Source: Pseudogymnoascus verrucosus (Eukaryota). From it: a DNA stretch of 64,000 nucleotides. Positions 1-48,017 of this stretch are shown here, piece after piece (the first letter of the stretch is position 1; every line of letters begins with the position of its first letter). The notes beneath the pieces were generated by a model. That model was given only the letters and a program-made list of their open reading frames with translations. It searched no databases and was not told where the DNA came from. Location: NCBI GenBank assembly GCA_001662655.1, contig KV460256.1; one strand, given 5' to 3'. A program made the translations under genes and the position numbers.

Positions 1-250
1 TAGATTAGTAGGAATAGTGAGAATAGTTAGAGAGTCTGCTATTCTAACTATTCCCTTTGGCACGACGCTACTATATAAGTAGATAGATAGTTCTTAGATA
101 GGAGCTTCGTGCTCAACTTAATATAGTATTCTGTTATATACTGTAACGTGTTTTACGAAAGCCTTTGTGTCTGATCCCCTGCCTCCTCTGTTAAGTAAAC
201 TAACGCAACGAAACCTCTGTAAGTCTTATAGTTTAAGACCTAGCGTTACA
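1..250 (+). mobile_element. Family A Gypsy LTR (partial, 3' end), inserted into the pol gene of another family A copy
   Basis: Near-identical to 2476-2724 and ends ...GACCTAGCGTTACA. The sequence that follows (GAAAGGCCTAGAGCAATATT) is mid-pol, matching the reverse complement of about 35840-35860. Confidence 0.9.
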
Positions 251-1634: not shown

Positions 1635-1639
1635 GGTTA

Positions 1640-2082
1640 GTTATAGAAGGACTAGTAAGGTAACTATAGGCTTTAGCTTCTTACTACTTATGTTCTTCTA
1701 CCTCCTCTAGTTCATTAAGGGTCTTTAAACCATAGTGAAGCATCTTAGCACCTTAGGTCTTAAGGAGATCCTACTACTACTTAAGGCAGTTAAGATAGGC
1801 TATAGCAGTTACTATAGCCTTATAAGTTATGTGAGTTTTAAGTTAAAGACAGTCCTCTTCTTTCTATAGTAACTACTAGTCACTAGTAGAGGGACTAGAG
1901 ACATTATAGTTATAGGAATTTAAACGAACACATTTATTACATCGTTTTAAGGATGTAGAAGCAAGGTAGCAGAGACCTCGTTTCTTATAGTAGGAATAGG
2001 AAGGCATTTCAACCCCTTTATAGGTTATATAGTTAGTAAGTAGTTTACGTTCTTTGATTTTTAAGTATTTAGAGGAAGACAT
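1640..2082 (-). pseudogene. Family A antisense accessory gene, allele 1 (Zn2Cys6-like plus coiled coil), RIP-mutated; 3' end lost in the gap
   Basis: MSSSKYLKIKER...EMPSYSYYKKRGLCYLASTSLKRCNKCVRLNSYNYNVSSPSTSD. Several TAT (Tyr) codons sit at Cys positions of allele 2, as expected from TGT>TAT RIP. Downstream 'MLHYGLKTLNELEEVEE' is homologous to 'MLRRGLRTLDELEEAE'. Confidence 0.8.
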
Positions 2083-2729
2083 AGTTATGGCCTTACCTAC
2101 CCTATGAATATAAGGGACCTACTACACTTAAGTAGGCTAGTAGATTCTTAGTTAGTAATGGCCTATAGGACTAGGCCTTAAGGGAGGGGACCTAGTGTTA
2201 TAGCTAAAACATGTAACCTATATGCTATAAGATAGAATAATAAGGTAAAATAGCTTATAGCTAATTAGTAGTAGGAAATAGACGTAGAGATTGTAAGTAG
2301 CTTAGTTAATAAGGGCACCTTTAGGAAAAGGTACCTTTTGTAGAAGGTACCTAGTAAAAGAAAGGTACCTATTAGGAAAGGCACCTATATAGAGTAAGGT
2401 GCCTCCTTAGAAGGGCACCTATAGGAATTAGTACCTATAATAAGTGTAGCACCTCTTATAGGATGTACACGTAATTAGATTAGTAGGAATAGTAAGAATA
2501 GTTAGAGAGTCTGCTATTCCAACTATTCCCTTTAGTACAACGCTACTATATAAGTAGATAGATAGTTCTTAGATAGGAGCTTCGTGCTCAACTTAATATA
2601 GTATTTGTTATATACTATAACGTGTTTTATAAAAGCCTTTGTGTCTAATCCCCTACCTCCTCTATTAAGTAAACTAACGTAACGAAACCTTTGTAAGTCT
2701 TATAGTTTAAGACCTAGCGTTACATCTTA

Positions 2730-19102: not shown

Positions 19103-20310
19103 ATGCTAGTTCCTATGCCCTCTAGGGCTTTAGTAGATTCCTTCTATGTTCTATACATCTACTGCCTTTAGGCAATTTCCTATAGAGCTATAGCCTATAC
19201 TTATGTCTAGTCCTTAACTAGCTTAAAGTGTAGTTACTATACTTTATAGCATTCTATGTATATTCTAGTAGGTTTCCTATTGCTTTTTAGTTTTGCTTTT
19301 AGCTTGTTCTTAGGTTTATTTAGTGTTAACTTAGTAGGAATAGCTACCCTAGTTCCTAGGGACTAAGTTCGCTACTATTATTACTACTAAGGCAGCTACC
19401 CCCCTTATCCCTAACAATGTTATTACTACTACTATTAAGGCTAACTATGTCCTATTACTTGCTACTACCTCTATCTCTAAGTTCTAGGACAAGGCAACTT
19501 AGGACCTCTATAAGGAGGCCTATATAACTTACATAGCCCTTAAGTCTCTTAATTTAAGACTTAAGGTAAGTAAATCTCCTTTCCTAGTAGGGTATTAGTA
19601 CTAACCTAGGTTAGGCTGTTTGTTTGTTACTATACAGTCTTTAGATAGAGTAAGTAGAGGTTCCTAGCCTCTTAAAGGAGGTAGTAAACATAGTAGAGGT
19701 AGGTACTATAGCTATTGTTACTATTACTATAAAGTTAGTCCTAGTACCTACCCCCTATAGAAAAGAGAAGGAGAAGGAGAAGGAGGTTGTAACGCTAGGT
19801 CTTAAACTATAAGACTTATAGAGGTTTCGTTACGTTAGTTTACTTAATAGAGGAGGCAGGGGATTAGACATAAAGGCTTTTATAAAACACGTTATAGTAT
19901 ATAACAAATACTATATTAAGTTGAGCACGAAGCTCCTATCTAAGAACTAACTATCTACTTATATAGTAGCGTTATGCTAAAGGGAATAGTTAGAATAGCA
20001 AACTCCTTTGCTATTCTTGCTATTCCTGCTATTCTATCATGTGGGTTATTCTCTTTCTAGTACCTGTGATTCTTCTAGTACCTGTCCATCCGGTACCTCC
20101 TAATCCTTAGGTGCCTAACTGTCTTCTAGTACCTATAAGCCTAGGTGCTAGACACTCCTTAGGTGCCTAATACTTAACCCTGCCTTAAGGGCGGTTAAAT
20201 CGCTAACATCCTTATTACTACTATACTTAGGGTGTTGGCGATAGTGCTGCTAAAAACCCTAGCTGTAACAGAGGTAGAGAATAGGGTTAGGGCCTTCTAT
20301 AGAGAGTAGG
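19103..20310 (+). pseudogene. Family B antisense accessory gene, allele 1 (six-Cys Zn-cluster-like; 2 introns), RIPped and interrupted by a solo LTR
   Basis: ATG 19103. De-RIPped exon 1 reads approximately MPVPMPSGA..SFHVPCIxCLRAISHGAxAHTCVRSxTGSKCGYCTxQHSxCIP. Donors GTAGGT at 19268 and GTAAGT at 19566, with (G/C)TAAC branch sites and TAG acceptors. 3' end approximate. Confidence 0.65.
19788..20270 (-). mobile_element. Family A solo LTR (483 bp)
   Basis: TGTAACG...TGTAACA termini, TSD GAGGT on both sides. Confidence 0.95.
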
Positions 20311-23300: not shown

Positions 23301-26300
23301 TTACTATCTACCTTCTTTACAAACAGTATAGAGGAGGTAAACAAGCTATTACTATTAACTATAAAGCCCTTCTTAAGGTTCTAATAGGTATTACTTAGTT
23401 GCCTTAAGCTCTTTAGTACTTTATTAGTATAGTAGTAAGAAGGCGTTTAGTAAAGGGGCTTCTAGCTATATCCTATAATTATATATATAATGTAGGGGAA
23501 GCTAATTAGATTCTAACTTTAAAAAGACATTAGAATAGTTATAGTGCATCTATAGAAGCTTATTCTAAATAAGGTAGAGCGTTTCTTTATCCTTAGCTAC
23601 TTCCCTCTCCTAGATAATCTAGTTAATCTTATAAATACTTATTATAAAGAACTTAGAGTTGCTCTATATTATCTTATAGTAGAAAGCGTTTGCACTAATC
23701 TTATAAATTTAGACTAGTATAAAGCTATATAATAGGGTTTAGTGTTAAGAGGGAGGGACAACTCTACTTCTTCTATAATTCTTTCTCTTATATATAGATA
23801 GTCTGTTTCTTAGAGGATTTGCCTTTACTTACTTAGAGGGTCTATCTTTATAGGTTTCTATAGGTAAGGCCTATAGCCTTAAGGTTTTAAGGTATAGGTA
23901 GGTTAGTCTATTATCTTATACTATACTTAGTAGGGTAATAATAATAGTGTTATAATAGGCTGTTATTACTTTTATTTACATTAAGCGTCTACCCTTATAT
24001 TGTCTATTATTATAGTTAATAGCATTATCCTACTAGTTTGCATCTAATTAATAGGTAGGGTAATGTATAGATAGTTTATATAAGTAATAGGGTAAGGTAA
24101 TCTCTTTGCTCTAGCTAGGAGTAGGTAGGTACTCCTTTAGCTATACTAGCTAGCTCTTTATAGAGTTAAGTAGGATTTAGAAGTAGCTAAAAAGCTTCTT
24201 TCTAATTATTACATCTTGCGCTCTAAGATCTAGGAGCATAAAGGGGTAGTTATAAATTTAGTGTCCTTTAACTATTAAGTATAACTAAATATACTCTAAT
24301 ATATAGCTTTAGATATTTTGCTAAAATCTATATATAGGTACAAAGTAAAGTAGTTTCTATATAGGGCTCTAGAGTGCTTTTAACAGTTGTTATGTAAAAG
24401 GCTTATTAATAACAAGGTAGCTATTTGCTCCTATGTTAGTAAGTGACTTCATTTACACCTTAAGTCCATTTATACTTAGGGTTGTATTAACAAGAAATTA
24501 GGAGCCTCTTAAGAGTTCTTATAAATCTAGTCCTTATAGATTATATTTACATAGACCTAGGAAGGAGCCTTTCCCTAGGCCTTATTGTTTTCCTCTAAGG
24601 ATATATCTAACTAGTAGGCAACTACTTCCTCTTACTACTCTTTGTCCTTAGGGGCTTTATAATTAATCTCCTTAATAGTAGGGTTAAGTAGGCATTTATC
24701 CTAGAAATAGCCTAGCTTACTATACTTAAAACAGTTCCTAGATGTAGCTAGTATAGTAGTTTATATATAGCCTATAATGTCTAGCTTAGGGGCTATAAGT
24801 ATAAAGGGAGTCCTTAGGAAGGAAACTAGAGAGCTTCTTATCTACCTTAGTAGCTAGGCCTTTCTAGGGTTTATAGGTATAAACCTAGATAAGCTTAGGT
24901 AGGTAGGTCCTTAGGAGCTTAACTTACTACTCTTAGATAGGAAGCTTAACTTGTTATTCTAGTGCTACTCTTAATTAAAGGTAGTAAGTTCTTAGACTAT
25001 AGTATAGTAGTCTCCCTTCTATTAGCTTTTAATAACTACTATATAGCTATAGAATTAAGGGGTTAACTTGTTCTATATATACTAAAACTATTCTAACTCT
25101 ATAACTTATCTTATAATAGCTACACTTTAGAAGCAAGCATTAAACTCTAAGAAAGTCTTATTTATATATCCTTTCTCTCCTATTTAGAGGTTGTTAAAGA
25201 GGTTCTAGGCCTATTCTGTTTTATTACTAGTAAGGTAATATAAACCTAGTAGGTCTATTATCTTGTTAGCACTCTAAAACCTATACATTATAAATAGATA
25301 TTAAGGTTTAAGGTACTTCTTTACTAAGCTAGTTATAGTTCCTTATATTAACGCTCTCCTTAAGATGTTAGTAAGGTAGTAATCCTTATTAACTATAAGG
25401 TAGTCCTAAATAGACACACTCTATTATATAAAGGTATGTTCTATCCTTATAAGGATGCCTCCTTACTTAGGGTAGTTATAGCTGTTATATAGCGCTATTA
25501 AGACTTAGGGCCGTTATAGGTTAGTTGCAACTAACAGCCTTAGGTATATAACGTAAGGAAGCCTTAGGCAAATAGGGAGCTAGCTAAGTTAGAGTAGTTT
25601 TAGGTATTTTAAGGGAACAGCTATATAAGGTTATACCTTTATCTTTTTTATATCCTTCGTAGTAGACCTATAGGATTACACTAACTTCTATCTAACTTAT
25701 ACTCCTATATATAACTTCTTATAATACAGTGCCCTATGTCCTTACATTATATAAAAAAGATTACGCCTACTAGGGACAGCTATATGTAAATAATATCCTA
25801 CAACTAGAACGACTTAGGAGAACTGTTAAAACACTACTAACTACAACTTAGTAACATTTTAAAGTAGAGACCTAACGACTTTAAATAGCTGTAACCCTAG
25901 AGAACTTATAGACAACTAGTAGATTAGGGTTTAATCCTATAGAGTAAGCTAGTAAAGTCGCTAACGCGTTAGTGCTAAATAGGATATAAGATCCTTAAGA
26001 ACCCCCTTAAGCATAGAGGCAATTGTAAACAAGAGTGTTAATAGCTATAAGCTACTAGAAGTTAAACTCTTTTATATTAACACTAATACACCCCTAAACT
26101 AATATAAGGAAAATGACCTTAAACATCCCCTAAGACAATGATGGTTAACTGTTACAAATGTTAATAAGACAAACTACTGCTATAGCTATAACTACTATAC
26201 CTACTAATGATATACTAGATTAAATAGCAAACCTTAAGATCTAGATGTAAGAGATTAAGGAAATAATAGCTAACCTAGTAGCAACCTAGACTAGAATACC

Positions 26301-29300
26301 ATCTATGCTACTAGTAGACACTGTTAAAGTTATAGAGCAACGAACTTCCCCTATATAAAATACCCTTAAGACAGTTTAGTTGCTGCCTCTTTAAAACACT
26401 TGTTCTCTATTAATTCTAAGGAGGTATTCTAAAGACCCTCTAAATCGCTATAAGAAATCCACCATCTCTAAGAAGATTACGCCGCTTAGTAATAGGATAG
26501 AACATACCTTTATATAATAGAGCGCGTTCATTTAGGACTGCCTTATAGTTAATGAGGATTACTACCCTACTAACGTCTTAAGGAGAGCGTTAATATAGGG
26601 AACTACAACTAGCTTAGTAAAGAAGTACCTTAAACCCTAATACCTATCTATAACGCATAGGTTTTAGAGTGCTAACGAGATAATAGACTTACTAGGTTTA
26701 TATTACCTTACTAGTAATGAAACAGAATAGGCCTAGAACCTCTTTAACGACCTCTAAATAGGAGAGAAAGGATATATAAACAAGACTTTCTTAAAGTTTA
26801 AAGCTTGCTTCTAAAGTGTAGCTATTATAGGATAGGTTACTAAGTTAGAATAGTTTTAGTATATGTAGAACAAGTTGACCCCTTAATTCTGTAGCTACGT
26901 AGCAGTTATTAAAAGTTAATAGAAGGAAGACTACTATACTATAGTCTAAGAACTTACTACCTTTAATTAGGAGCAGCGCTAGAACAACAAGTTAAGCTTC
27001 CTGTCTAAGAGTAGCAAGTTGAGCTCTTAAGGACCTACCTACCTAAGCTTATCTAGGTTTACCCCTATTAACCCTAGAAAGGCCTAGCTACTAAGGTAGA
27101 TAAGAAGCCCTCTAGTTTCCTTCTAGAGGACTCCCTTTACGCCTATAGCCTCTAAGCTAGACATTATAGGCTACATGTAGACTACTATGCTAGCTACGTC
27201 TAGGAACTGTTTTAAGTACAGCAAGCTAGGCCATTTCTAGGACAAATGCCTACTTAACCCTACTGTTAAGGAGATTAACTATAAAGCCCTTAAGGACAAA
27301 GAGTAGTAGGAGGAAGTAGTCGCCTACTAGTTAGATGCATCCCTTAAGGAAAACGACAAGGCCTAGGGAAAGGCTCCTTCCTAGGTCTACGTAAATGTAA
27401 TCTATAAGGACTAGATTTACAAGAACTCTTAGGAGGCTCCTAATTTCTCGTTAATACAACCCTAAGTATAAACGGACTTAGGGTGTAAACGAAGTCACTT
27501 ATAGACATAAGAGTAAATGGCTACCTTGTTATTAATAAGCCTTTTACACAATAGTTGTTAAAAGCGCTTTAGAGCCCTATATAGAAACTGCCCTACTCTA
27601 TACCTATACATGGATTTTAGCGAAGTATCTAAAGCTACGTATTGTAGTATATTTAGTTACACTTAATAGTTAAAGGACGCTAAATATATAACTGCCCCTT
27701 TATGCTCCTAGATCTTAGAGCGTAGGATGTAATAATTAGGAAGAAGCTTTTTAGCTACTTCTAAATCCTACTCGACTCTATAAAGAGCTAGCTAGTATAG
27801 CTAAAGGAGTACCTGCCTACTCCTAGCTAGAGTAAAGAGATTACCTTACCCTACTACTTACGTAAACTGTCTATACGTTACCCTGCCTATTAATTAGATA
27901 CAAACTAGTAGGACGATGCCATTAACTATAACGACTAACGACATAAGGGTAAACGCTTAATACTAATGAAAGTGATAACAGCCTATTATAACGCCATTAT
28001 AATTACCCTACTAAGCTTAGTATAAGACGAGGGACCGACCTACCTACCCCCTAAAACCCTAACGCTATAGGCCTTGCCTATAGCAACCTATAAAGACGAA
28101 CCCTCTACGCGAGCTAAGGCAAATCCTCTAAGAAACGGACTATCTATATATGAAAGAAAGAACTATAGGAGGAGTAGAGTTGTCTCTCCCTCCTAACGCT
28201 AGACCCTATTATATAGCTTTACACTAGTCTAAATTTATAAGATTAGCGTAAACGCTTTCTACTATAAGATAATGCAAAGCGACTCTAAGTTCTTTACAAT
28301 AAGCATCTATAAGATTAACTAGATTATCTAGGAGAGGGAAGTAGCTAAGGATGAAGAAACGCTTTGCCTTATTTAGGACAAGCTTCTATATATGCACTAC
28401 AACTATTCTAATGTCTTTTTAAAGTTAGAATCTAATTAGCTTCCCCTACATCACATATACAATTACTAGATATAGCTAGAAGCCCCTTTACTAAACGCCT
28501 TCTTACTACTATACTAACAAAGCACTAAAGAGCTTAAGGCAACTAAGCAATACCTATTAGAGAACCTTAAGAAGGGCTTTATAGTTAATAGTAATAGCCT
28601 GTTTACCTCCCCTATACTGTTTGTAAAGAAGGTAGATAGTAAACTAAGATTTTGTATTAACTACTAGAAGTTAAACAGACTAACCTATAACGACCTCTAC
28701 CCTATCCTATATATTAACGAACTACTAGGATAGGTAGCAAAAGCAAAAATCTTCACGAAGCTAGACATTAGACAAGCCTTCTATCGTATATAAATAGACC
28801 CTAACTCTAAAGAGTACACGACCTTTTAGACTTAATATAGATCCTATAAATATAAAGTGCTGCCGTTTAGTCTAACGAACGGCCCTACAACCTATTAGAG
28901 GTATATGAACGACGTTCTTATATAATACTTAGACAACTTCTATACTGCCTACCTAGACAACATCCTAATCTACTCTAAGGACCCTATAGAATACATAGAC
29001 TACGTATATAAGGTCCTCTAACAGCTTTAAGAAGCAGGACTATAAGCTAACATTAAGAAATGTAAGTTTAACGTAACCTAGACAAAGTATTTAGGCTATA
29101 TCCTAACTACTACTAGTGTTGAAGCAGATCCTAAGAAGATTGAACCCCTCTAGAATTAGATCTAGCTAACAACTGTTATAGGCGTAAAGTCTTACCTTAG
29201 ATTCTATAGCTTCTAACGCTAATTTATTAGAAATTTTAGGAAAATAGCTAAGCCTCTCACTACTATCACTAGCCCCTTAGAACCGTTTCTATAGACTAAC

Positions 29301-31633
29301 GAATGTAAGAACGCTTTTAAAGAAATGTACTAACAGCTTTTAGCCATATAGGCGCTCTACTACTTTAACCCTAAATTGCCTACAAAGCTAGAAACAGACT
29401 CCTCTAACGGAGTCGTAGCTAGTGTTCTTTCTTAGGAACACCTAGATAAGCGATGGTATCCTATAAGCTTCTATAGTTACATCCTATCTAGGCAAGAGAT
29501 TAATTAGGAGATCTATAACAAGGAACTATTTGCTATTATAAAAGCGTTTGCAAAATAGAGGCTAGAATTAACATTAGTACGCTACTAAATCGACGTTTAC
29601 ACTAATTACTAATTACTAGAATACTTTATAACAACGAAGGTTCTTATAGTAAAGTAGGTTTAGTAGATAGAGCTACTCTCTAACTTCAACTTCTATATTA
29701 CATATATAGCTAGCAAGAACAATTAGAAGGTAGATATACTAAGCTAAAGAGAGCAAGACCTAATTACATAGTAGAAGGTTAAACTAGATAGCTATGTAAG
29801 GGTGCTTTTAGGCCTAGCCTAACTACACCCCTAAATTAGTGCTAAATTAGCACAAACGTACGTAGCCTTAATTAATGTAATAGACGCCTTAAACACCTAG
29901 GTCCCCTTTAACCTAATAGAAGCGCTCTACGTAGATAATAGGAGGTCGTTTACTAACACTTACATAAAGGACCCCCTACCTAATAGGTTTACAATAAAGG
30001 ACTAACTATTGTTATATAAGGGTTAACTATACGTAACCTAGCATACTAAGTTATGTACAAAACTTATATAGGAAGCACATAATTAAGTATTAGTAGCCTA
30101 CCCTAGTAGTAGAAAAACTTATTAGTTACTCGCCCTAAAGTATCATTAGGTTAGAATAGAAGCGGATTGTCTTTAATACGTACGTAATTACGTAACATAC
30201 TAACTTACTTACACTAACGTTACAAAGTAGTAAGGCTTCTTATACCCCCTACTAGTACTAGAATACCCTATACAATACCTAACGATAGACTTTAAGGAAT
30301 TCCTAAAGGATAAATACAGATTTAACAGCATCCTAGTGTTTATAGACTAACTTAGTAAGGGTTTAGTGTCTATACTGTGTTATAAGACCACTAACGCTTA
30401 CTAAATAGCGCAGCTATTCATTAAATGAATATATCGATTTAGACACACCCTAGAGTCAATCATTAGTAATTATAGACCCTAATTTATATCAGCTTTCTAG
30501 CGAGAGTTCTACTAAATTATAGGGGTTAAGATTAAGCTGTTAATAGCCTATCATAAGTAGACTAACGGGTAGATAGAAATCATAAATTAGTATATTAATT
30601 AGAGACTAAGGCCCTTCGTATTACATTACTAGGATAACTAGAGCAAGCTCATTCCTATTATAGATTAGGTGTAAATGACCCTTCCCTATACCTTAATTAG
30701 AATAACCCCCTACTAACTTAAGTACAGAACTAATCTACATACTAGTTAGGACTAGGAAACCCTAAAAGCCACAACCCCTAGGGAAGTTATAAACTAGAAG
30801 GAAGCTAAAGTAGTAGTAAACTGCATGTACTCTACCTAGACTTATGCAAAGGAGAACATAGCTAAAGCATAAGAGGATATGTCTAAATACATAGATCGAC
30901 GCTAACGAGCCATTAACTAGGATGTAGGGGACAAGGTTTACCTATCGACTAAGAATCTAAAAAATCACTACCCTAGCTATAAGTTAGGGCAACAATAGGT
31001 TAGACCCTATACAGTACTAGAACAAATCAGGCATGCCTTCTAACTAGACCTACTAAAGGGTTCTTAAATACATAATGTCTTCTCTCTAGACGTACTTATA
31101 AAGGCTCTAAATAACCTACTACCTAGTTAAGCAGCGCCTAAGCTAAGTAGCGAAGTTATAGATAGCCTAGAGGAGTAGGAGGTTAAAAAGATCCTCGCTA
31201 TAAGGATCTAGCGAAAACAACTTTAATACTAGGTATCCTAGGTTAGATACGATCTAGACCTAGAATAGTACCCCGCCTTAAACTTTAAGAACTCCCCCTA
31301 TAAAATCTAGGAGTTCTACATAGAGTACCTAAACCTACTAGGACTGCTGTAGGACCTACCTAGCTAGATTATAGAATAGGAGACAGGTAAACTAAGCTAC
31401 GATTATAAGAGGCATGGCAAAGTAGAGGAAAACAGCGTTGTTGCTACCTACGACACTAAACTAAACACCCTCTAAGCTAGGGCACCCTTAGAGCCATAGC
31501 CCTTATAGAAGCTACCCTTCCTAAACGTCTTACTAGCGTTATAACAAGCAGCTACTACTATAAGAGATGAAGGGTTAAAGTGACCCTATACAAAAGACTA
31601 CGCCTAAGTTCCCTCTAATATAGGGCCTATTAC

Positions 31634-32385
31634 CTAAGGTCGACGGTTACCCCCTCCTCCTCTACCTCTACTACCTCCTCTACCCCCCTCTTCCTCTTCT
31701 TCCCCCTACTACCGCCTACCTTTGCTGCTGTAGCAAGGGCGTTAGGGATCCTCTCTACTAACTCCCCTACTACATCTACTATAGAAGCTACCCTATTAAG
31801 GGCAGCGATCTCCTTCTCCTAGTTCACTAGGATTAGAGCTAATTTCTAGCCTACAACGGCTATAGCCTAGCGGACCTGCTATAGTCGTTAGCGTAAGAAC
31901 TAAAAACATATAAGGGACATAGAAAACTTACCTCTAGACTGTCCTTAACAGTAGCGTAGAGGGCGCAACTCTCTATATAGGCTAAAAGCTTAGCTAGGGA
32001 GCAGAACTTTAGCATATTAGCAGTAGCTAATGTAACTACACGCCTAATCTCTACTATAGCGGCCTTAATGGTAGTAGGGACAGGAGGGGTTGCTGCCTTA
32101 GTAGCTAGGAGCTTCTAGTACTCTAGGCTAGCAAACTAGGAGATCTATCTCTAGAGGTTAGCAACAGGTAAACAGACAAACCACAAAACTAAAAGCTAAA
32201 CGAGAACCTACTAGAACACACGTTACGTGTTAGGCTACATAGCGCTTATACTTAGAGCTTTCTAAGCTCTATATACATAAGATGGTGGGATCTCCGTCCT
32301 TCTTGCGCCCTTTAGCGCGCACGTAGTGCATATACTACTAGTAGAAAGCCATAGTAAGGGCGCTAGGAGGCGGGGGAACTAGCAT
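31634..32385 (-). pseudogene. Family B antisense accessory gene, allele 2 (six-Cys Zn-cluster-like; 2 introns; Gly/Arg/Glu-rich tail), RIPped
   Basis: ATG 32385. De-RIPped exon 1 reads approximately MPVPPPPGALAMAFHxxCMxCVRAKGRKKDGDPTIxCIxSxESSKCxRCVAQHVTCVP. Introns about 32211-32145 (GTAGGT..GCTAAC..TAG) and 31931-31879 (GTAAGT..GCTAAC..TAG). 3' end approximate. Confidence 0.65.
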
Positions 32386-33242
32386 CTTTAAATTAGAAAT
32401 CTACAATTTCCTATTAGCCTAACCTAAGTTATTACTACTACGCTAGCGCAGTTCCGTTACCTACTAAATCGTTAGTTGTGTTTTTATATCTAAAAACAAC
32501 CTATTAGCATCTAGCTATACTATTAGAAGGGCCACTTACTAGTCTTAGGAGGGGGGGTTAGCGTTGTTATTATAAAGAAAACAACAAGCTATAGGCGAAG
32601 CTCGAATTCATATTCTAGCTTATAATAAAGCTGTCTAAATCAGGTTAGCGCGAAATTTCCCCTTTACATTGAAATTCTACGTTAACATATACTACGTAGA
32701 CCCTATTTAATACTAATACAGACCCTCGTAACACTAATCGCCATATACATAATAAAGACGCAACTTTACGCAAACGGATTTAGACTACTTCTAGTGCCTA
32801 TATAGCTGCCTACCATTAGCTATCTAGACAAACAAAGGGCATTCTAGTCTTAGCGCCTATACCTTATCTACTAACCTAAATAAGGGCTCATTATAGCAGC
32901 TACTTAGCTAGCGTGCTTTAAGGACAAAGTACCTTCTTAAGGTAGAGGGTAGTGTAAGGATACCTCCTTACTTAGGGTAGTTATAGCCGTTACATAGCGC
33001 CATTAAGACTTAGCACTGTTATAGGTTAGTTGCAACTAACAGCCTTAGGCATATAACGTAAGGAAGCCTTAGGCAAACAGGGAGCTAGCTAAGTTAGAGC
33101 GGTTTTAGGTATTTTAAGGGAACAGCTATATAGGGTTACACCTTCATCTTTTTTATATCCTTTGTAGTAGACCTATAGGATTGCACTAACTACTATCTAA
33201 CTTATACTCCTATATGCAACCTCTTGTAATACAGTGCCCTAT

Positions 33243-36200
33243 TGTAACGCTAGGTCTTAAACTATAAGACTTACAGAGGTTTCGTTGCGTTGGTTTACTT
33301 AACAGAGGAGGTAGGGGATTAGACACAAAGGCTTTCGTAAAACACGTTATAGTATATAACAGAATACTATATTAAGTTGAGCACGAAGCTCCTATCTAAG
33401 AACTAACTACCTACTTATATAGAGGCGTCGTGCTAAAGGGGACTGTAAGGAACTGTAGGAACTGTAAGAGTTCTAGCAGTTCTCACGGTTCTATTACGTG
33501 AGTGCTATTCCGGTACCTATGCTGTTTCCGGTACCTGCAACTCCGGTACCTCCTAATTCCTAGGTGCCTGACTGTCTTCTAGTACCTGTAAACTTAGGTG
33601 CTAGACACTCATTAGGTGCCTAATAACTAACCCTGCCTTAAGGGCGGTCGAATCGCTAACATCCTCATTACTACTATATTCGGGGTGTCGGCGATAGTGC
33701 TGCCGAAAACCCTAGCTGTAACACTAGGTCCCTCCCTAAGAGGCCTAGTCCCTAGGACTTGCTAACTAAGAAAGTTGCTAACTACTTAAGTAGGGTGATG
33801 CCTACTACTATCCATGGGGCAGGTCAGGCTGCGACCATGTCTTCTTCCAAACATACTAAAATCAAAGAACGTCATCTCCTTACTCTCCGTGTTGCTACCA
33901 CTGGGGTCGAAATGTCCCTGTGTACTCGATGTGAACGTTGTGAAACGAAATGCGTCATGTCTGGCGATTCTAGACGATGCGCTAAATGCATAAAATCAAA
34001 CGTTAAGTGTGACGCCGCTGGTCCTTCTCTTGGAGATTGGGAACGCCTCTAGCGTGAAGAGGAACGCTTGTCGCGAGAGATGGAGCTCGCCATTTCCTAG
34101 GCCTAAGAGGCTATGGCGAAGCAGCTCTAAGTCTCTAAGTAACAACGTCTGTTGAAGAGTCGTAGGGGGGAGATGTTGCGCCGTGGGCTTCGGACACTCG
34201 ATGAGCTAGAAGAAGCTGAAGCAAGTGAACGCGCGGCCCTGGCAAGAGCAGCTCGCCTACCTGCCTCTCCGCCTACTACAAATCCTGAGGCCCCTGACCC
34301 TAAACTGGATTTCTCAACCTTCGATCATGCGGCCTTGTCGCCGTTGTACTGGCCGAATTAGAGTGTCGACGGCAGAACTCCGCTAACAACTCTAGGCAGC
34401 TGAGATTCCTTCTCGACTCCCACGAGTTGTCCGTAGGTTCGTAATCTTTCCATTTAATTAAAAACTCTTCTCGGCGTCCTACTAACCTTCTGTCTAGGAT
34501 CGCCTCAACCTCATATTCGATAATCTCATTTTCGGGTTAAAGTTCGGTATCTGTCGCAATTGGGGCATCCCCTCTTGCTAGTTCTAATAATGAGACATAA
34601 AACACTAGATAGAGTTTGGAGTTCTTAGGTAGCTGCAGCTTGTAATTAACTGAGCTAACTTTCTCTAATATCTTGAATGGTCCCAATTTCTTGAAGTCTA
34701 ACTTCGTGCTTAGTCGTTTCGTTTTAATGTGTTTCTAGAGTAGGTATACTTTATCCCCCTCCTTAAAGGCAGGTTCCATACTGCGCTTCCTGTTTGCGTA
34801 TGTAGCGGATCGTTCATTTAAGAACTAGATGTCCGTCGCTAGTTGTTTCTAGAAGGAAAGTATCTTTAATACTTCTAACGTTCCTTCCTCAGAGCGAAAT
34901 TTATCTGGTCTTGGCGTCTTATACGCCTCTAGTTGCCATCCGTTGTTGGCAAAGAATGGTGAGACTTTTGTTACCTCTAACGGTGACGAATTATATGCGA
35001 ACTCTGCTAAATGTAGGTACTAAACCCAATTATCCTGTTTAGCGTTAACATAGCTCTGCAAGTATGCTTCTAACGTCTAGTTGGTTCGTTCTGTCTGTCT
35101 ATCCGTTTGTAGATAAAAAGCTGTAGACAGCTTATAGTTTGTTCCGAGCTGCGCCATAACTGTCTGCTAGAATTTGGATGTAAAGAGCTTGTCTCGATCC
35201 GAAATTATCTCGTCTGGTAGTCTATGCGCTGCGACGATGACTTTTAGAAAGATATATGCTAACGCCTTCACGTCTAACGCTTCTTTAAACGGCGTGAAGT
35301 GTGCTTCCTTCGTAAGTCGGCAGTTAGAGACCATAATAGAGTCTGCCACAAACTCTGTCATTGGTTCTTTCGATAATGGCAACTTAACAATGAAGTCAAT
35401 TGCTATCGAGGACCATGCTCGTTTTGGTGTTAGTGGGGACTTTAAAAGTCCGTATGGTGCGTGTCTATTTGCTTTTGACTTCTAGCAAATGTTGCATCCC
35501 AACACAATTGTTTCTACCTACTTCCTTAGACCTGGGAAGTAGTAGTGTCGTGCAATTCGTTCGAAGGTTCGTGTTACTCCCTAGTGACCGTGTGCTGGTA
35601 ACGAGTGTTGTTCTTGCACCAGCGGGCGTCTCATTTGACTTAGGACATACACTAATCCTTTAAATCGGATCAGCCCTTGTTCGTCGATAAAGAAGTTCCC
35701 TTCGACTTTGTTTAAGGTTCGCTTCGCTATTTCGTCTGTTGCGTAAGCGTTCTTGAGTCTCTGCTTAAGTTCTGTGTCTTCTACGATGGCGATCGTGGCT
35801 AGTAGTTCGTTGTATTGCATTCCTACGTCTGTCTTCTTTAATATTGCTCTAGGCCTTTCTTCCTTCGGGCCGATGTAGTCGGTCCTTCTGCTAAGAGCAT
35901 CTGCTCTTGCATTCTTAGAGCCTTTGCGATAGGTTATCGTGAAGTTGTAGGCTGCGAGGGTTTCTGCCTAGCGGACTTGTCTGCAGTTCAAAACCTTAGT
36001 CGTGGTGAAGTATATAAGGTTCTTGTGATCTGTCCATACTTGCATAGTGTAGGTGGATCCCTTAAGGTATACGCGCCACTGCTCAAAGGCAACGACAATA
36101 GCCAGTAGCTCCTTGTCGTGGATGTTATAGTTAAGCTCCGCGGGTGACAGTTTCCTAGAGTAGTATGCAATTAGTTTGAACTTACCGTTCTCGTCTAGTT

Positions 36201-39200
36201 GGTTTAGACATGCTCTAATCGCGAAATCAGAAGCGTCCGTCTTAAGGACGATCTTCTTTGTAGGGTTAAATGTCGTAAGGATGGGTGCCTCCGTAAACTT
36301 CGTTTTAAGTTCCTAGAAGGCAGCCTCCGCTTTATCTGTCCATTTGAACACGAGATCCTTCCTAGTGAGCTCCGTGAGTGGTTGAGCTACCTTAGAATAT
36401 CCCGCAATGAACTGACGGTAGAAGTTAGCGAAGCCTAAGAAGGCTTGTACTTCCTTAACTGTGGTTAGTGTTAGCCATTCCAACACTGCCGTGACCTTTG
36501 CTTAGTCCATCTTAATGCCGTGCGTTCCGATAATGTAGCCTAAGAATTCGACTTGGTTTTTATAGAACTTACATTTCTCTAGCTTCAACAGTAGGTTGTA
36601 TTCCTTCAGCTTCTAGAGGACGAGCTTAACATGCCGAGCATGTTCGTCCCTGTTTGCTAAGTATACTAGTATATCGTCTAAGTAAACGATGGTGAATATG
36701 TCTAGATATTCATGTAAAGCGTCATTCATTAAGCGTTGCATAGATGCGGGGGCGTTAGTCAACCTAAAGGGCATGACTTGATATTCGAATAGGCCATAGT
36801 AGGTGCAGAATGCTGTTTTCCACTCCTCGCCGTTAGCTATCCAGATTAGGTTGTACGCGCCACGCAGATCTAGCTTGGTGAAGATCTTGGCTCCTTAGAA
36901 TCTATCGTGTAACTCATTGATTAACAGTAAGGCGTATCGATCCTTTATCGTTATGTTGTTTAATGCTCGATAGTCCACGCAGGGTCGTTTGCTCCTATCC
37001 TTCTTAGGAACCCATAACATCGGGCTTCCTGCAGGAGATTTGGATGGTCTAATAAATCCTTTCTTAAGGTTATCGTCAATGTATTCCTTTAGCAGTTTTA
37101 GCTCATCTACTAACATCTAGTATATTGGTCCGAACAGTAGACTCTTTCCTTCTTCTAAGGGTATTACATGATCCTATGGTTGGTGCTTAGGAAGCGCCTC
37201 GTTCTTAGGGCCTTCCTAGAATAGCTGCTCGTATTCCTTATACTCCACCGGTATACTCGTCGGTAAGGGTGCCTAGGCTAGGTCACTAGGCTCTATAGAG
37301 GTCGCATACACCTCGCGTCAGCCCTAGGATGGTTTCTCCCGTTGTGGCGTGTCCGTTCGTTGTTTACACGCGCACTGGCTCATTACAACTTTCTCGTTCC
37401 ACCAGTCGATCTAGGGGTTGTGTTTCTTGAGCCATGGCACACTAAGGATACATGCATGGTTGTCTATGTGTACAATGTCAAATTGGATCGTTTCCTTGTG
37501 TCCGCGTAGCATAATCATTTCCAATGGGACCGTCTCGTAGGTCACCATCCCCTTATTAGTCGAGATGGGCTCTCCATCTACAACTATAAGTGGGTAAGGG
37601 TCGGTTTTCATTTGCGTTTTGAAACCTTAAGCGTCTGCTACTTTCTTCGTTATAAAGTTGCCCGTTGCTCCTAAGTCAATCATGGCTCGGAGGTGTCGCT
37701 GTTGTATCTTAGCGACTATATATAGCTGCATGCTGCCTCCTGTGGCGCATAGCTGCTTTGTACTAGGCCTCTCTTTGTTACTCGCCGGTGGCCTACCGTC
37801 GAGGACTCCTAGTTTTTTAACTCGTCCGAGGAGTAATAGTGATGTTCATCATCCTCTATAGGCGGTCCTTGGGAAGATTGTCCTCCCCATCCTTCTGCTT
37901 CATCTAGCAGGTGCAGGTATTTCTTGTATACCTGTCGTTGTTTCTTCAACAGTAGTTCTCCTTTAGACTAACTTCGTCTAAGGGCATGAATTTGGTCTAT
38001 ATCCGTAAAGTAGACCTAAGGTGCAATTTTCGGAAATAGTCGATACTAGGTCTTTTTCCGTAGGTGACTCTCGCAGTCATCGTACTTGCAGTGTTCCTAG
38101 AATATATATGGGTGCTAGGGGTGATCAATCCTTAATGCATCCAACTTTGTCAATTCCTGTTCCTCCTTTGTCTTGCCCGTGAGCTCGGATTTCTCTATGG
38201 TTTTACGTAACCTTTCTACGTCTCTATTGATGGGTTCGTAGTCTATAGCAGCTTGGTCTGCTCGTAGTTCCTAGGGTTTAGGTCCCTAAGTGTCTTCCTG
38301 CTATTCGTCTTGCGCGTCATATTCCGCAAGCTTGTATTTCAACCACATAGTGGCTTCCTCAGAGGTGTGGTTCGCTCCTTAGGGCTCCCTTCCTCGTGGG
38401 TACCTAGGGCGGCACCTCATGGCGCGAACTACAACTTCCTAGTCTTGTCGAGTGCCTATCCATCCCGTCGGGGGTGGTGGTACAGGAATCGCTCTTAGAG
38501 TTCCTTGTCGAAGCATGGTCTGTCTGTAGACGTCGACCACTCCTAGTAGATTCTCCTTAAATGCGATCTCCTTCGCGTCTTCTTCAAACTCCTTCAGCTA
38601 GAGTTTCTAGGATTCCGTTAATCCCCTGTTTAGGAGTTCGTTCTCCTTCTCGAGTGATGCGTTGAAGTCGTTGAGATCTTCGTCGCCTGAGCTCTCTTCT
38701 TCTAGGGTGCTATCGCCCGTGATCCCCTAGTCGGGTTTGTTCACGAACATGGCGTTTAACTGCCCCTTCTAAGTGGCGTTAAGTTGTCTCCTGAATTTCT
38801 TATGTCCTCCGTTCCCTTTCTTAGGTTGCTTGCAGTCTTAGGCCATGTGGCCCGGCTTGTTGCAATTAAAACACAACCGTTCCTTAAGCTGTCGCTCTTT
38901 GTTTAGGTTACGGGGTCTCCCACTAGGCTTGAACGTAGCGTCGAGCTCTATGGGCTAAGGCTAATGACTCTTCTAAGTTCTCCGCTTCTAGGTCCATTGG
39001 TGGCTGGTTGTTCCTCCCTTCCTTTCGAGTTAGCGTTCGTAGTAACGATTGTCGATCTTCTAGGCCATCTTAATTAATTCTTTGAGGTCATCTAGTTTGT
39101 CCGACTAGGAGATTTCGTCCTTTACATGATCCTTCAGCCCCTTGTAGTATCGGTCGCATATAGCCTTGTCTCCCTAACTAGTGAGGGGGGCATGCTGCTA

Positions 39201-40224
39201 GAACTTAGCAGTATATGTAACTGCCGACCCCCTCTGCTTAAGGGCCTCGAGGGCTTGCACTACGTTTCTTCTTTCGTCAACGTCCCCGAAGTTCGCCTTA
39301 AGTTGCTTAACGAAGCTAGCCTAAGTGATGAAGATATCCTTAGTGCCTTGGTTAGCCGTCGTGGTGACTCTTCCGTCAGCTGCTTAGTGGCTCATGTAGT
39401 CCGTTAGGTAATTGGCAATCCAGTCGGAGGCTGAGCCCCTTAGGAGGGCCACTGCCCATAGGACTTGCTATACTTCAAAGGCAAAGTGCTTAGCGTTGAA
39501 GGCCATCTAGAGTTCCGTCTAGATAAGGAAGCTCTTAAGCTTCTTGCAGTCCCCATTGAAGGTGTCTAGGAATGCAATCTTAAGTTTGTCTAAGGGGTGT
39601 GGTCCCCTAGGCGCAGGCGTGGTGGTAGGTAATGGGACAGGCTCGACAGCTGCCTTGCCCTTCGACCCTACGTTAGATGCTGAATCGTTTCTAGCCATGT
39701 TGCTTGTATATGAGCCGGTACCTCATAGAAGTGGTGCTCAAAGTGTAACGCTAGGTCTTAAACTATAAGACTCATAGAGGTTTCGTTGCGTTGGTTTACT
39801 TAACAGAGGAGGCAGGGGATTAGACATAAAGGCTTTCATAAAACACGTTACAGTATATAACAAAATACTATATTGAGTTGAGCACGAAGCTCCTATCTAA
39901 GAACTAACTACCTACTTATATAGAGGCGTCGTGCCAAAGGGGACTGTGAGGAACTATAGGAACTGTAAGAGTTCTAGCAGTTCTTACGGTTCCATCACGT
40001 GAGTGCTATTCTAGTACCTATGCTGTTTCCGGTACCTGCAACTCTAGTACCTCCTAATTCCTAGGTGCCTAACTATCTTCCGGTACCTGTAAACTTAGGT
40101 GCTAGACACTCATTAGGTGCCTAATAACTGACCCTGCCTTAAGGGCGGTCGAATCGCTAACATCCTCATTACTACTATATTCGGGGTGTCGGCGATAGTG
40201 CCGCCGAAAACCCTAGCTGTAACA
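33243..40224 (-). mobile_element. Full-length family A chromodomain Gypsy element (6982 bp; LTRs 39744-40224 and 33243-33723), moderately RIPped
   Basis: Two 481-bp TG...CA LTRs, TSD CCTAT, gag ATG near 39698, zinc knuckle CFNCNKPGHMAxDC near 38850, protease MIDxGATGNF near 37670, RT YLDDILVY near 36675, RNase H, integrase, chromodomain WKDYEPTDNSWE near 34430, and PPT. Confidence 0.97.
33837..34403 (+). pseudogene. Family A antisense accessory gene, allele 2 (189 codons; Zn2Cys6-like plus coiled coil), with RIP stops
   Basis: MSSSKHTKIKER...CTRCERCETKCVMSGDSRRCAKCIKSNVKC (C-x2-C-x6-C-x8-C-x2-C-x6-C), then a helical E/R/L-rich region. One frame, with internal stops all TAA/TAG (RIP type). 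Confidence 0.85.
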
Positions 40225-40238
40225 CCTATGTCCTTACA

Positions 40239-40533
40239 AGTTCTTATAGTTCTATTATATATATGTCCTATAAGAGGTACTACACTTATTATAGGTACTA
40301 ATTCCTATAAGTGCCTTCCTAAGGAGGCACCTTACTCTATATAGGTACCTTTTCTAATAGGCACCTCTCCTTTACTAGGTACCTTCTAAGAAAGGTACCT
40401 TTTCCTAAAGGTGCCCTTATTAACTAAGCTACCTATAATCTCTATGTCCATTTCCTACTGCTAATTAGCTATAAGCTATTTTACCTTATTACTCTATCCT
40501 ATAGTATATAGGTTGTATGTTTTAGCTATAACA
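40239..40533 (-). mobile_element. U3 half of a family A LTR (alpha-type U3), truncated at a B LTR end
   Basis: Reverse complement matches 2196-2470 and ends ...TTTAGCTATAACA. Confidence 0.88.
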
Positions 40534-40674
40534 CTTAAGAGCTATAATAAGAACTATAGATTAAGTTAGAATTAGAAGAGGGAAAGAGAAATAGGTTAAT
40601 AAAGGGTAAAGAAATAGGTAGAGCATAAAGGGTTAATGTACTAGCTATAGTATTAAGGGTGTTACTAAGGGTAA

Positions 40675-42569
40675 TGTAACGCTAGGTCTTAAACTATAAG
40701 ACTTATAGAGGTTTCGTTACGTTAGTTTACTTAATAGAGGAGGCAGGGGATTAGACACAAAGGCTTTTGTAAAACACGTTATAGTATATAACAAATACTA
40801 TATTAAGTTGAGCACGAAGCTCCTATCTAAGAACTAACTATCTGCTTATATAGTGGCGTTGTACTAAAGGATATCAAAGATATTATAGATAACAAATATC
40901 TAACATATCGTTGTTATCCATTACGTAGGTCTTACGATATGATTAGGTCTAAGGACTAGAGGTCTCTAGATCCAACTAATCCTATAATGTCCCCTACTCT
41001 TAAGACTATAGGGCGTAGGAGCTACTTAGTTCCTATGCTCCTAGGTCGTGCGCCTAGCTTAGTCCCTAGGCCTAATTAGGTCTAGCGCTACTAATGTTCT
41101 AGCGCTTAGCTTAGTTGTTCGACCTAACAAGGTTGTACGCTGTCTAGTTTCTAACAGTAGATACTCTGTTCTAATATTAGAAACCTACATAGTCTATAGT
41201 TTCCTTAAGGGCTATAACACTAGGTCCCTCCCTTAAGGCCTAGTCCTAAGGCCTATTACTAACTAAGAAAAACGCTAACTACTTAAGTAGAGCAATGCCT
41301 ACTTGTTCTATAGGCAGGTTAGGCTGCGACTATATCTTCTTCTAAACATACTAAAATTAAAGAACGTCTTGCTCTAGCTTAACGAATCCTAACTACTAGC
41401 ATTAAGATGCTGCCCTATAGTTAATGTAAAAAGAAATGTGTAAAATGTGTTGTATTAGACGATTCGAAACGATGTAGTAAATGTATCTGTGTTAACGCTC
41501 ACTATAATGCTAGTGGTCCTTCCGCTAGCAACTAGGATAAGCTCGAATGCAAAGAACGTCGCTTGTAAGAGGAGGAGGAAGAGGCAATGGCTAAAATCCT
41601 TTGCCTTTGCAAGCAGCAACGTCTGTTCCGTTCCTAAGCTAAAGACATACTTCGTTAGGGTCTGAAAACTATAGACGAACTCAACGAGGTAGAGGAGAAA
41701 GAGCGTAAGGAAGCTAAGTCTAAAGAGGCCTTTCCTTACAGTCCTTCTACAACCGTCTCTAGGACTGCTGTCCCTAACCTAGACCTTTTCGCAGCCCTAT
41801 CTCCTAGGTTTTTCGAACGTTAGGGTGTCGACGGTAGAACTCCGCTAGCAGCTCTAGGCAGCTAAGGTTCCCCCTTAACTCCTATAAGTTATCCGTAGGT
41901 TCGTAACCTTTCCATTTAATTAAAAACTCTTCTTAGCGCCCTACTAACCTTCTATCTAGGATCGCCTTAACCTTATATTTAATAACTTCATTCTTAGGTT
42001 AGAGTTTAGTGTCTGTTGCAATTGGGGTATCCCCTCTTACTAGTTCTAATAATGAGACATAAAATACTAGGTAGAGTTTAGAGTTCTTAGGTAGCTGCAG
42101 TCTATAATTAACTAAGCTGACTTTGTTTAATATCTTAAATGGTCCTAATTTCTTAAAGTCCAACTTCGTACTTAGTCGTTTCGTTTTGATGTGTTTTTAG
42201 AGTAGGTATACTTTATCCCCCTCCTTGAAGGCAGGTTCTATACTGCGCTTCCTGTTTACATATGTAGCGGATCGTTCATTTAAGAATTGGATGTCCGTCG
42301 CAAGTTGTTCGTGGAACGATTTTAGTTATTCCACCACGATTAGGGCTTGTTCAGCTCGTGCCTCGTCCGGTCTTGGTTGCCTATATGCTTCCGGGTCGTG
42401 CGCCCGGCTCAGTCCCCAGGCCCAATTGGGTCTAGCGCCACTGATGTTCTGGCGCTCGGCTTAGTCGTTCGACCCAACAAGGTTGTACGCTGTCTGGTTT
42501 CCGACAGCAGATACTCTGTTCTAATATCGGAAACCTGCACGGTCCATAGTTTCCCCGAGGGCCGTAACA
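40675..42569 (-). mobile_element. Internally deleted family A element (1895 bp): 3' LTR 40675-41219, accessory gene, chromodomain/integrase tail, distal part of 5' LTR
   Basis: TSD GGTAA on both sides. PPT at about 41220-41240. Integrase tail joins the LTR U3 at about 42390. Confidence 0.92.
41332..41865 (+). pseudogene. Family A antisense accessory gene, allele 3 (178 codons), RIPped
   Basis: (M)SSSKHTKIKERLALA*RILTTSIKMLP(Y)S*CKKKCVKCVVLDDSKRCSKCICVNAH(Y)NASGPS...EAMAKIL...ILR*GLKTIDELNEVEEKE...GVDGRTPLAALGS*. Confidence 0.82.
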
Positions 42570-45807: not shown

Positions 45808-46460
45808 GATGAAGTGTATATTGGTCGAGTGAGATAATTGAAGTTGAACTCTTGTAGCTGTTGTTGGTATTATTGTTCTTGTTCGAAATATTCTTGTTGT
45901 CTAATGAGGGGGATGCCCGCTATATAGGAGGTTCCAAGCCCCCTCGTTGATAAGTGGTTCTTCATAATTGGTCTAGCCTTAGCCCGATTACGTAGCTACT
46001 ACTGACGGTGCTCGGCCAAAACTGGCATATTTGGCCAAAGCATTTCTGTAGATCAGTGGCGGTTGCCTTGGCCTGTTTCTCGCGCGAGAGGTCCGATACT
46101 AAGCTCTGTTGCAGCGCTGGTCTTCGCGCGATACAATCAGACGCAGAATCCCCGCACGCTATTAGCGTTATCAGCGTGCGGGGCATCTATGCTGCTTGGA
46201 CAACCCCCCACGGGCGAGTCCTGTAGTTGAGCAGGTTAGTCCCACATCTGGGTTCAAGAATCGATCGAGTTATAACCCCACTGACCGAGGGCGCGATACT
46301 GGTTATGGATAGAATGTGTTCTCCCGCTGTTGTCTCTGTGAATTCTGTAATAATCGTCATAGATGAGCTTGTTCAATGTGTCCCCTTTCTTTCGCGTGTG
46401 TTCGCCCTTCCTTTTCTTTTGGGTTATCCCCTTTATTTATGGTTTGTCCTGCTATTTGCT

Positions 46461-47430: not shown

Positions 47431-48017
47431 CCACTTGCGGCACGTCACCCTGCTGTTGCATCCGCTCGTAATTCTAAAGGAAGGAAGTGGAAATTTTGAG
47501 AAATTCATCTCTGTAGCACCCAGATACTTTGTTCCCACAACATAACCTCTGCCGGTATGCAAGCTCTTTGAAGTTTGGCTTACCTATGAATTCTAAGTCT
47601 GATTTACTGAGCGGCGATTGCTGTGACCTTGCTGCCATCCATGTGAAGCTGAGATGAGACATGGGATGAGACATTTGTCATTTACTTTCCGACCGAACTC
47701 TAACTTCCAGTAGCATGGAAGTACCAAGGGCTGTAAATATTGAAATCAGTGACAAATGAGGTAACCACCAGGATATTCAAAATGCGCCGATTTGTTGTCA
47801 CTGCTCAATAGGATATGCAGGTAATCATTAGACATCAGTTCGGCAGTATCGACAGGTGCCGACCTTATCGAAGGGTGCACATTCCTTAGCCCTCCCTAGC
47901 CCTTGATAAGTTTGTCTCAAATGCCGCCGAGTGAAATGATATAAACAAACTTGCATCCCATAAATCTGCTCTTCATAAACAACATTTAACTCCTCTAATG
48001 GTTATACTCCGTCTAAA

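Follow-up and report, generated by a model that had tools for sequence, protein, structure and literature searches.

A putative zinc-cluster gene and an LTR repeat block vary together in a Ty3/Gypsy retrotransposon family of Pseudogymnoascus verrucosus

The 64,000-nucleotide stretch of Pseudogymnoascus verrucosus DNA analysed here (contig KV460256.1 of assembly GCA_001662655.1; hereafter the window) contains several copies of family A, a Ty3/Gypsy chromovirus of the fungal host that is damaged by repeat-induced point mutation (RIP). Its long terminal repeats (LTRs) carry in U3 the M block, a 55-75 bp quasi-palindrome of GGA-initiated repeats about 9 bp apart that lies between an E-box and the TATA region, and an accessory open reading frame (ORF) occupies the opposite strand between pol and the 3' LTR. 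Across the genome this ORF occurs as four alleles, and each allele was found with its own type of M block on DNA that is otherwise shuffled between elements. This coupling suggests that the element brings along its own lock-and-key switch, and from the sequences we consider it fairly probable that the ORF product, encoded by the element itself, binds DNA in an allele-specific way and activates the element's own LTR.

Pairing of ORF allele and M block

In the full-length element E2 the arrangement is as follows:
33243..40224, minus strand: element E2, a full-length family A Ty3/Gypsy chromovirus, RIP-damaged, with the target-site duplication (TSD) ATAGG (5 bp)
33243..33723, minus strand: E2 3' LTR of 481 bp, comprising distal U3 of type A, E-box, M2, TATA and R/U5
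33414..33434, minus strand: conserved GCACGACGC element and TATA box, the 3' border of the M block
33437..33492, minus strand: M2 block of the E2 3' LTR, with three direct units of GGAACY type at -70, -61 and -52 from the TATA anchor
33493..33500, minus strand: E-box-like 5' border of the M block, CACGTAAT in the E2 3' LTR
33508..33591, minus strand: a second, distal repeat array of four copies with a GGTACC core, common to several ORF alleles and not tracking the allele
33724..33739, minus strand: polypurine tract abutting the E2 3' LTR
33740..33836, plus strand: spacer from the polypurine tract to the antisense start codon, type s2, common to alleles 1, 2 and 4
33837..34403, plus strand (antisense to E2): brtn-like ORF, allele 2, of 188 codons with 6 in-frame stops
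34300..39698, minus strand: E2 gag (Ty3 capsid, CCHC knuckle) and pol (protease, reverse transcriptase, RNase H, integrase, SH3, chromodomain), interrupted by stops
39744..40224, minus strand: E2 5' LTR, with M2 at 39941-39993

The same M2 block of the 3' LTR also holds three inverted units (at -35, -26 and -17 from the anchor); its three direct copies follow one another at 10 and 9 bp within 33439-33468, and its inverted arms lie at 33450-33469 and 33472-33491. The E-box border reads CACGTGAT in 19 of the 89 LTRs where it could be read and is a transition variant in the rest. The distal array, some copies of which hold CCGG and whose related motifs recur in distal types A, B and C, is a candidate host-factor array.

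In the genome around the window (30.2 Mb in 151 contigs, with TpA/ApT of up to 3 in repeats as the signature of RIP) 101 TATA anchors were found by pattern search, and 101 again by a looser pattern applied to the fetched loci. Clustering of the M blocks on transversions only, which makes it blind to RIP, was feasible for 88 of these 101 LTRs, the other 13 being cut off, rearranged or devoid of the border motif. It yielded seven unit types: M1 (52 LTRs), M3 (12, one of them shortened), M2 (9), the M4 group (7), GGACY (3, one shortened), GGATC (3) and GGATAT (2). The M1, M2, M3, M4 and GGATAT blocks have in common three top-strand GGA units, spaced some 9 bp apart from about -70 to -48, together with inverted units, two or three in number, from about -35 to -15; in the M1 sub-types the symmetry reaches beyond the units to the central loop. 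The GGACY and GGATC blocks have a less regular arrangement and are longer. LTRs with GGATAT, GGACY or GGATC units and no ORF were seen, among the loci examined, at C28:259103, C70:141349, C78:5241, C53:160, C58:131952, C22:206643 and C1:1056638, and units like theirs stand beside other alleles in loci L076 and L077.

All eight M blocks that were folded proved more self-complementary than their dinucleotide shuffles, of which 0-2 of 200 folded as well; z was -3.5, -2.9, -6.0, -4.5 and -4.4 for five of the six window blocks (that at 1-56 was not folded) and -6.5, -6.2 and -2.7 for blocks at three other loci. A chance cluster of words as the origin of the M block is ruled out by these foldings. 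The hexamer GAACYG as such is not enriched in the window (52 observed against 42.4 expected, with 7 of 100 shuffles reaching 52), so that the M2 signal lies in clustering and symmetry, not in the word.

By tblastn on the fetched loci 30 matches were obtained, corresponding to 29 ORF copies, one of them split by an insertion. Leaving out L018, a further copy interrupted by an insertion (which itself fits the pattern with allele 1, distal type B and M1), 28 copies were analysed, 27 of which have their 3' LTR in view. Allele and M type match in all 27: allele 1 with M1 in 16, allele 2 with M2 in 4, allele 3 with M3 in 3, and allele 4 with the M4 group in 4. Typing was by eye for three of these M blocks, which gaps or a contig end hide in part, and for spacer, distal type and M in L020; the two sub-types of allele 4 were merged for the test, and splitting them gives no conflict. 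At the haplotype level (n=9) the ORF is associated with M (p=4.4e-4) and not with the spacer (p=0.43) or the distal U3 (p=1.0), and at the copy level neither with gag (p=0.50, n=15) nor with integrase (p=0.30, n=22). Spacer and distal U3 lie within the 320-410 bp that separate gene and M block; alleles 1 and 2 were each seen with both distal type A and type C, and allele 4 was seen with type A. With this intervening DNA held fixed, the chance of a perfect match among copies is 0.0024 by spacer and 0.025 by distal type. Simple linkage is a poor explanation, since spacer, distal U3, gag and integrase alleles assort freely.

Sliding comparisons place a switch near the ORF start and a switch back at the E-box. 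In L004 the spacer and distal U3 between an allele-1 ORF and M1 are almost the same as in the allele-2 element, and L073/L003 and L005 are switch-and-switch-back mosaics of the same kind. Between alleles, reverse transcriptase and RNase H differ by about 0.3-0.7% transversions and the ORF by about 20%. Both gag (about 38800-39700 in the window; 20% transversions) and integrase (about 34700-35700; 14%) are dimorphic in the family, their alleles being independent of each other and unlinked to the ORF. Outside ORF and M, family A is a freely recombining pool; M as a marker of whole-element subfamilies was rejected, as gag and integrase alleles assort independently.

The other family A features of the window are:
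1..250, plus strand: element E1, 5' LTR truncated at the contig start, with M1 at 1-56
1635..2082, minus strand: ORF allele 1, antisense, running into the N gap at 1435-1634
2196..2724, plus strand: E1 3' LTR, with distal type B and M1 at 2476-2531
19788..20270, minus strand: solo LTR with TSD ACCTC, distal type A and M1 at 19981-20040
40239..40535, minus strand: LTR fragment in which a distal U3 of type B is joined to a truncated M2 (about 40239-40257), with no ORF attached and hence unscorable
40675..41163 (upper limit approximate), minus strand: 3' LTR of the deleted element E3, with distal type D and M3 at 40869-40920
41332..41865, plus strand: ORF allele 3, antisense, 177 codons with 7 stops and a damaged start codon

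E3 as a whole (40675-42569; TSD TTACC) carries a large deletion from early in its 5' LTR to the end of integrase.

An earlier note on the window, drawn from its letters alone, had placed six M1, M2 and M3 blocks there, had described direct repeats with inverted copies at 9-10 bp spacing beside an invariant TATA/R/U5 part, and had paired alleles 1, 2 and 3 with M1, M2 and M3. All six blocks were found, the repeat pattern was seen at M2, the TATA/R/U5 part (about 198 bp) is 90-97% identical among the window copies, and the three pairings hold. The repeat units given as GAATAG, GAACTG and GATA(T/A)C are present, their start now being read as GGA (GGAATAG, GGAACYG and GGATAW). The M1 block at 19981-20040 is located as described, in what turns out to be the solo LTR, and is of a sub-type unlike those at 1-56 and 2476-2531; the truncated M2 behind a type-B distal U3 has to be added as a seventh block, and the three unit types, all of them real, have become at least seven genome-wide. 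Random assortment of allele and M type over many copies, which the note had named as speaking against its idea of a lock and key, did not occur.

The layout recurs in other organisms. A metagenome scan recovered at least three loci with antisense ORF, polypurine tract, LTR start, E-box-like motif and GGA-unit block, in which new alleles go with new direct and inverted units (GGAGCG, GGATC and GGACC). In two of the three, pol lies on the opposite strand (the third contig begins inside the ORF), and in two of the three TATA comes next (one contig ends earlier). These loci show layout and co-variation to be general, a single locus being unable to test linkage. Loose ends at this border in contigs of four other sequencing runs resemble M1, M3 and GGATC blocks, so that different organisms have M types in common; ORF and U3 are covered at low depth in these runs and no listed piece spans ORF to M, so that they do not address linkage. 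One of the runs shares a study code with the run ranking best as carrier. No RNA run was listed as a carrier, a result that has no bearing on expression. Viral contigs, scanned by alignment and by TATA-flank pattern, yielded nothing. In L075, whose M block occurs as a duplicated 58-bp unit, a single LTR stands between the 3' end and the start of gag, as would be seen in a circle with one LTR, in a tandem or in a collapsed assembly.

The antisense gene and its predicted protein

The allele-2 ORF has its start at 33837, which is 113 bp inward of the LTR border. It is predicted to encode, in this order, a basic N-terminal helix, the pattern Cx2Cx6Cx8Cx2Cx6C, a long helix and an acidic tail that overlaps the end of pol. 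The frame is open in one of the 28 ORF copies. Protein identity among the four alleles is 49-59% (79% between the two sub-types of allele 4), and a search of the whole genome at the protein level gave no further allele. Transversions number 655 at third codon positions, against 491 and 356 at the other two, and the ratio of non-synonymous to synonymous differences (pN/pS) is 0.28 for the closest allele pair and 0.44-0.73 between the major alleles, with synonymous sites near saturation. The antisense ORF has evidently been under purifying selection.

Its homologues form 744 protein clusters at 50% identity (E<=0.001), the closest named ones being proteins of Pseudogymnoascus species; matches in the ESM Atlas were ascomycete clusters only. 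One cluster is named 'putative BRTN' of Botrytis cinerea. Because of 40% identity to this protein over 198 columns (E=4e-33), with the cysteines conserved, the accessory gene is, as judged from the alignment, a homologue of the published brtn gene, which the earlier note had not recognised. Alleles 1, 2, 3 and 4 each cluster with proteins of other genomes at full support and therefore predate this genome.

Zn2Cys6 cysteine spacing was found in 132 of 174 homologues, 8/6 being the commonest form, with a pattern slightly wider than Cx2Cx6Cx5-12Cx2Cx6-8C in that the last gap could be 5-8; the spacings listed all have 6-8 there. By this spacing the family A protein would be a Zn2Cys6 protein. A structural model with a predicted local distance difference test score (pLDDT) of 78 shows an N-terminal helix, the cluster, a 52-residue helix (residues 65-116, pLDDT >95), a further helix and a disordered tail; a single-sequence fold of residues 1-75 was poor (pLDDT 58). 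The 20 Foldseek matches listed are all zinc-cluster proteins (Pho7, Hap1, Gal4, Leu3, AlcR, Put3 and others; E 0.7-8), and the best sequence match in the PDB is Put3 (E=0.046). A wide structural search gave nothing beyond generic long helices (best Z 6.0), and against Pfam PF00172 the window copy scores 14 bits, the cut-off being 21. Strict parsing left 58 of 184 proteins for the charge analysis; all 58 have a net basic cluster, 56 have a net acidic tail, and 56 have at least two aromatic residues in the tail. The make-up of the tail is the weaker evidence, because the tail overlaps pol on the other strand. Among homologues from other genomes the tail is exchanged between cluster types, and the two sub-types of allele 4 have different tails and the same M family.

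Proposed mechanism and its alternatives

We propose that the antisense gene would be transcribed from the 3' LTR side and that its protein would dimerise via the long helix, the basic N-terminal helix and zinc cluster reading the GGA units that face each other in two runs. The acidic tail, with a host basic helix-loop-helix (bHLH) factor at the E-box, would activate the TATA box 15-70 bp off. An allele joined to a foreign M block would give a poorly transcribed recombinant of which few copies would be left, and for this reason matched pairs alone would persist while the DNA in between is exchanged.

A number of observations weigh against such an activator. None of the fold or PDB matches is significant at the E values given above, Pfam Zn_clus (PF00172) is matched at best at E=2e-4 with 14 of 22 members matching at E<=1, and the overlap of the tail with the end of pol on the opposite strand (113 bp in L009) may bias its composition. 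Gal4 contacts its CGG half-sites through a lysine (K18) four residues past Cys2; among the 132 homologues this position (Cys2+4) is Lys in 4, Gly in 58, Asn in 21 and Asp in 16, and the M units start with GGA, not with CGG triplets. A canonical CGG-binding member of the Gal4 type was rejected on these two grounds. For three unit types no ORF was attached at any locus examined, and the M1, M3, M4 and M7 units differ by merely one or two bases, so that allele specificity may be graded. L004, alone among 13 two-LTR elements, has LTRs with unlike blocks, M3 at the 5' end and M1 at the 3' end; as its flanks lack a TSD and it carries an internal deletion, it probably is an ectopic recombinant formed after insertion. 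Independent recombinants are few: among haplotypes the chance of a perfect match is 0.011 by spacer and 0.083 by distal type, the latter being the fairest measure of the scarcity of independent events. Alleles 3 and 4b have private spacer and distal types and therefore add nothing past linkage. Finally, two LTRs join distal type B, otherwise seen with allele 1 only, to M2; with no ORF attached they are unscorable, and they may descend from a mismatched element that transposed. The earlier note's lock and key with the element's own zinc-cluster protein is supported in part: by the 27 matched copies, by intervening DNA that does not track the allele, by the Zn2Cys6 spacing and by nearest folds that are all zinc-cluster DNA-binding domains, though short of significance. 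Set against it are the two stratified haplotype values.

A lock and key with another output, be it repression or copy-number limitation, anti-silencing of the VANC kind, or binding of an M-hairpin RNA for export or packaging in the manner of Rev/RRE, would predict the coupling of allele and M equally well. It would also accommodate the hairpins, better than shuffles in every M block folded, the symmetry that in M1 sub-types reaches into the central loop, and the place of U3 in the genomic RNA, whose 3' end would hold the M hairpin. The hairpin scores may, however, be a by-product of inverted half-sites, and the fixed site between E-box and TATA, the 9-bp phasing, the Gal4-like domain order and the acidic tail fit a DNA-bound activator; we regard another output as rather unlikely.

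Unlikely, too, is an account by history and linkage only, in which an ORF allele and an M block became fixed in each of four old subfamilies, M being born by slippage and fold-back in reverse transcription and the few mosaics being double template switches or gene-conversion tracts that by chance spared both flanks. Several template switches per replication round are normal in retroelements, ORF and M lie close together, and there are about five informative haplotypes, with p=0.083 when stratified by distal type; the LTRs joining distal B to M2 may be products of single crossovers. Yet integrase, about as far from the ORF on its opposite flank, has alleles that are unlinked to the ORF. Spacer s2 and distal A make up about 340 bp of near-identical sequence common to alleles 1, 2 and 4, in which single crossovers should give mismatches, and all 8 copies with spacer s2 are matched (p=0.0024 by copies). 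Moreover, this layout is found again, with new units, in other organisms.

Binding of the M blocks by host factors, tuning each subfamily to particular conditions while the ORF allele is co-selected indirectly (for instance as cofactor of a host factor), seems very unlikely: GATA cores do occur in the M3, M4 and M7 units and the CACGTG box is of host type, sites that we take to be targets of GATA-type and bHLH factors, but M1, M2, GGAGCG, GGACC and GGATC keep the same geometry with no GATA core, and the retention of a zinc-cluster domain that goes with M would be left unexplained. For crapaud, the available text of PMC10787394 proposes that U3 diversified for host factors.

Returning to the element-encoded activator, we put at about even the wider proposal that ascomycete chromoviruses of a widespread group carry a minimal zinc-cluster activator shifted from CGG to GGA recognition, and that activator and array co-diversify into orthogonal classes shuffled as a two-part module over one gag-pol pool. 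The immunity regions of lambdoid phages are an analogue of such a two-part specificity module.

Surroundings of E2 and related systems

With its stops read as X, E2 shows the domain order Ty3_capsid, zf-CCHC, Asp_protease, RVT_1, RT_RNaseH, Integrase_H2C2, SH3_Tf2-1, Chromo. Having gag, protease, reverse transcriptase, RNase H and integrase in that order and a C-terminal chromodomain, together with direct TG...CA LTRs, a 5-bp TSD and a polypurine tract, family A is a Ty3/Gypsy chromovirus. Right after the E2 5' LTR (39743-39728) the initial TGG of a tRNA primer site is absent, and E2 may prime itself, presumably in the manner of Tf1-type elements. An inverted repeat spanning the TATA region (33377-33400 / 33414-33437, 79-80% complementary), found also in the distant element L075 (1314-1333 / 1347-1366), may form an RNA or DNA structure at the U3/R junction. 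A second Gypsy family (family B, 20314-32950) is heavily RIP-damaged, with two inverted copies and LTRs of about 300 bp; its pol domains were matched, and its antisense strand gave no Pfam match. Host genes in 44065-63998 and 4561-5628 include the C-terminal part of a polyketide synthase-non-ribosomal peptide synthetase hybrid (57246-63998), a HET-domain gene, a GMC oxidoreductase and an ordinary Zn2Cys6 transcription factor.

The common view is that LTR retrotransposons depend on host factors for their transcription. Foamy virus Tas and Tax of human T-cell leukaemia virus type 1 (HTLV-1) are virus-encoded factors acting on their own LTR. The family A protein resembles Gal4, Put3, Hap1 and Pho7 in cysteine spacing, in the cluster followed by a long helix and in its nearest structures; it differs in its size of about 185 residues, its extra N-terminal helix, the mostly absent Lys at Cys2+4 and GGA-based candidate sites. 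To Tas, Tax and HBZ, all of vertebrate retroviruses, the putative family A regulator is likened by role alone. HBZ of HTLV-1 is produced antisense from the 3' LTR (as cited in the available text of PMC11963269 and PMC7264820).

brtn is the antisense gene of the Boty-like Gypsy elements of Botrytis cinerea and Sclerotinia (cited in the available parts of PMC7264820, PMC8365987 and PMC4227169), in which a homologous ORF takes the same site between pol and the 3' LTR of a chromodomain Gypsy element. Boty consensus sequences have an identical centre and different terminal regions (bioRxiv 10.1101/2022.03.07.483234, available text), and a 2020 review listing Boty calls the function of such antisense ORFs not known (PMC7264820). 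The accessible portions of this literature give no function and mention no zinc cluster, repeat array or pairing of allele and array; 'zinc' and 'antisense' do not occur in the available text of PMC3248453, and the supplement of PMC8365987 contains no match for brtn or two LTR motifs. The crapaud element of Podospora, a chromodomain Gypsy with 14 subfamilies, has a variable U3 upstream of TATA and a shared 3' half of the LTR, for which promoter selection was proposed; it differs from family A in having two ORFs (gag and pol), and its text as available contains 'zinc' 0 times and proposes no element-encoded regulator (PMC10787394). Antisense ORFs of plant Gypsy elements (Retand TRP28, Grande gene23) have the same position and orientation and a proposed regulatory role, but another domain, and their tandem repeats are internal, not at the TATA box (PMC11963269 and PMC7264820, available text). 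The brtn-type gene and U3 diversity are thus already known, and the coupling of allele and array is the new element here; a literature search found no paper coupling brtn-like alleles to LTR repeat blocks, most subscription journals and some supplements lying outside its coverage.

The closest functional analogue is provided by VANC/VANDAL (PMC5735166) and TnpA/Spm (bioRxiv 10.64898/2026.08.24.746577), described in the available text as sequence-specific regulators encoded by transposons, in which protein and clustered target motifs diverge together from one related family to another; the likeness is one of function, and no homology is claimed. As in these systems, a variant of the putative regulator co-varies with a clustered motif in its own element, in family A with few independent recombinants. 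VANC/VANDAL and TnpA/Spm differ in being plant DNA transposons with other protein families and with binding shown experimentally; their specificity varies, according to the same text, between families, whereas that of family A varies as alleles on one recombining backbone.

The locus ties together two published and unexplained things, namely antisense extra genes and LTR subfamilies that differ in U3 only. The four alleles and the three outside pairs predict which protein binds which 55-bp block. If the proposed activator is real, family A would be an LTR-retrotransposon counterpart of the VANC/TnpA systems, with specificity classes recombining on a single backbone; BRTN would gain a function, the U3 subfamilies of Boty-type elements would be explained, and these elements would offer a natural panel of small orthogonal activator/operator pairs.

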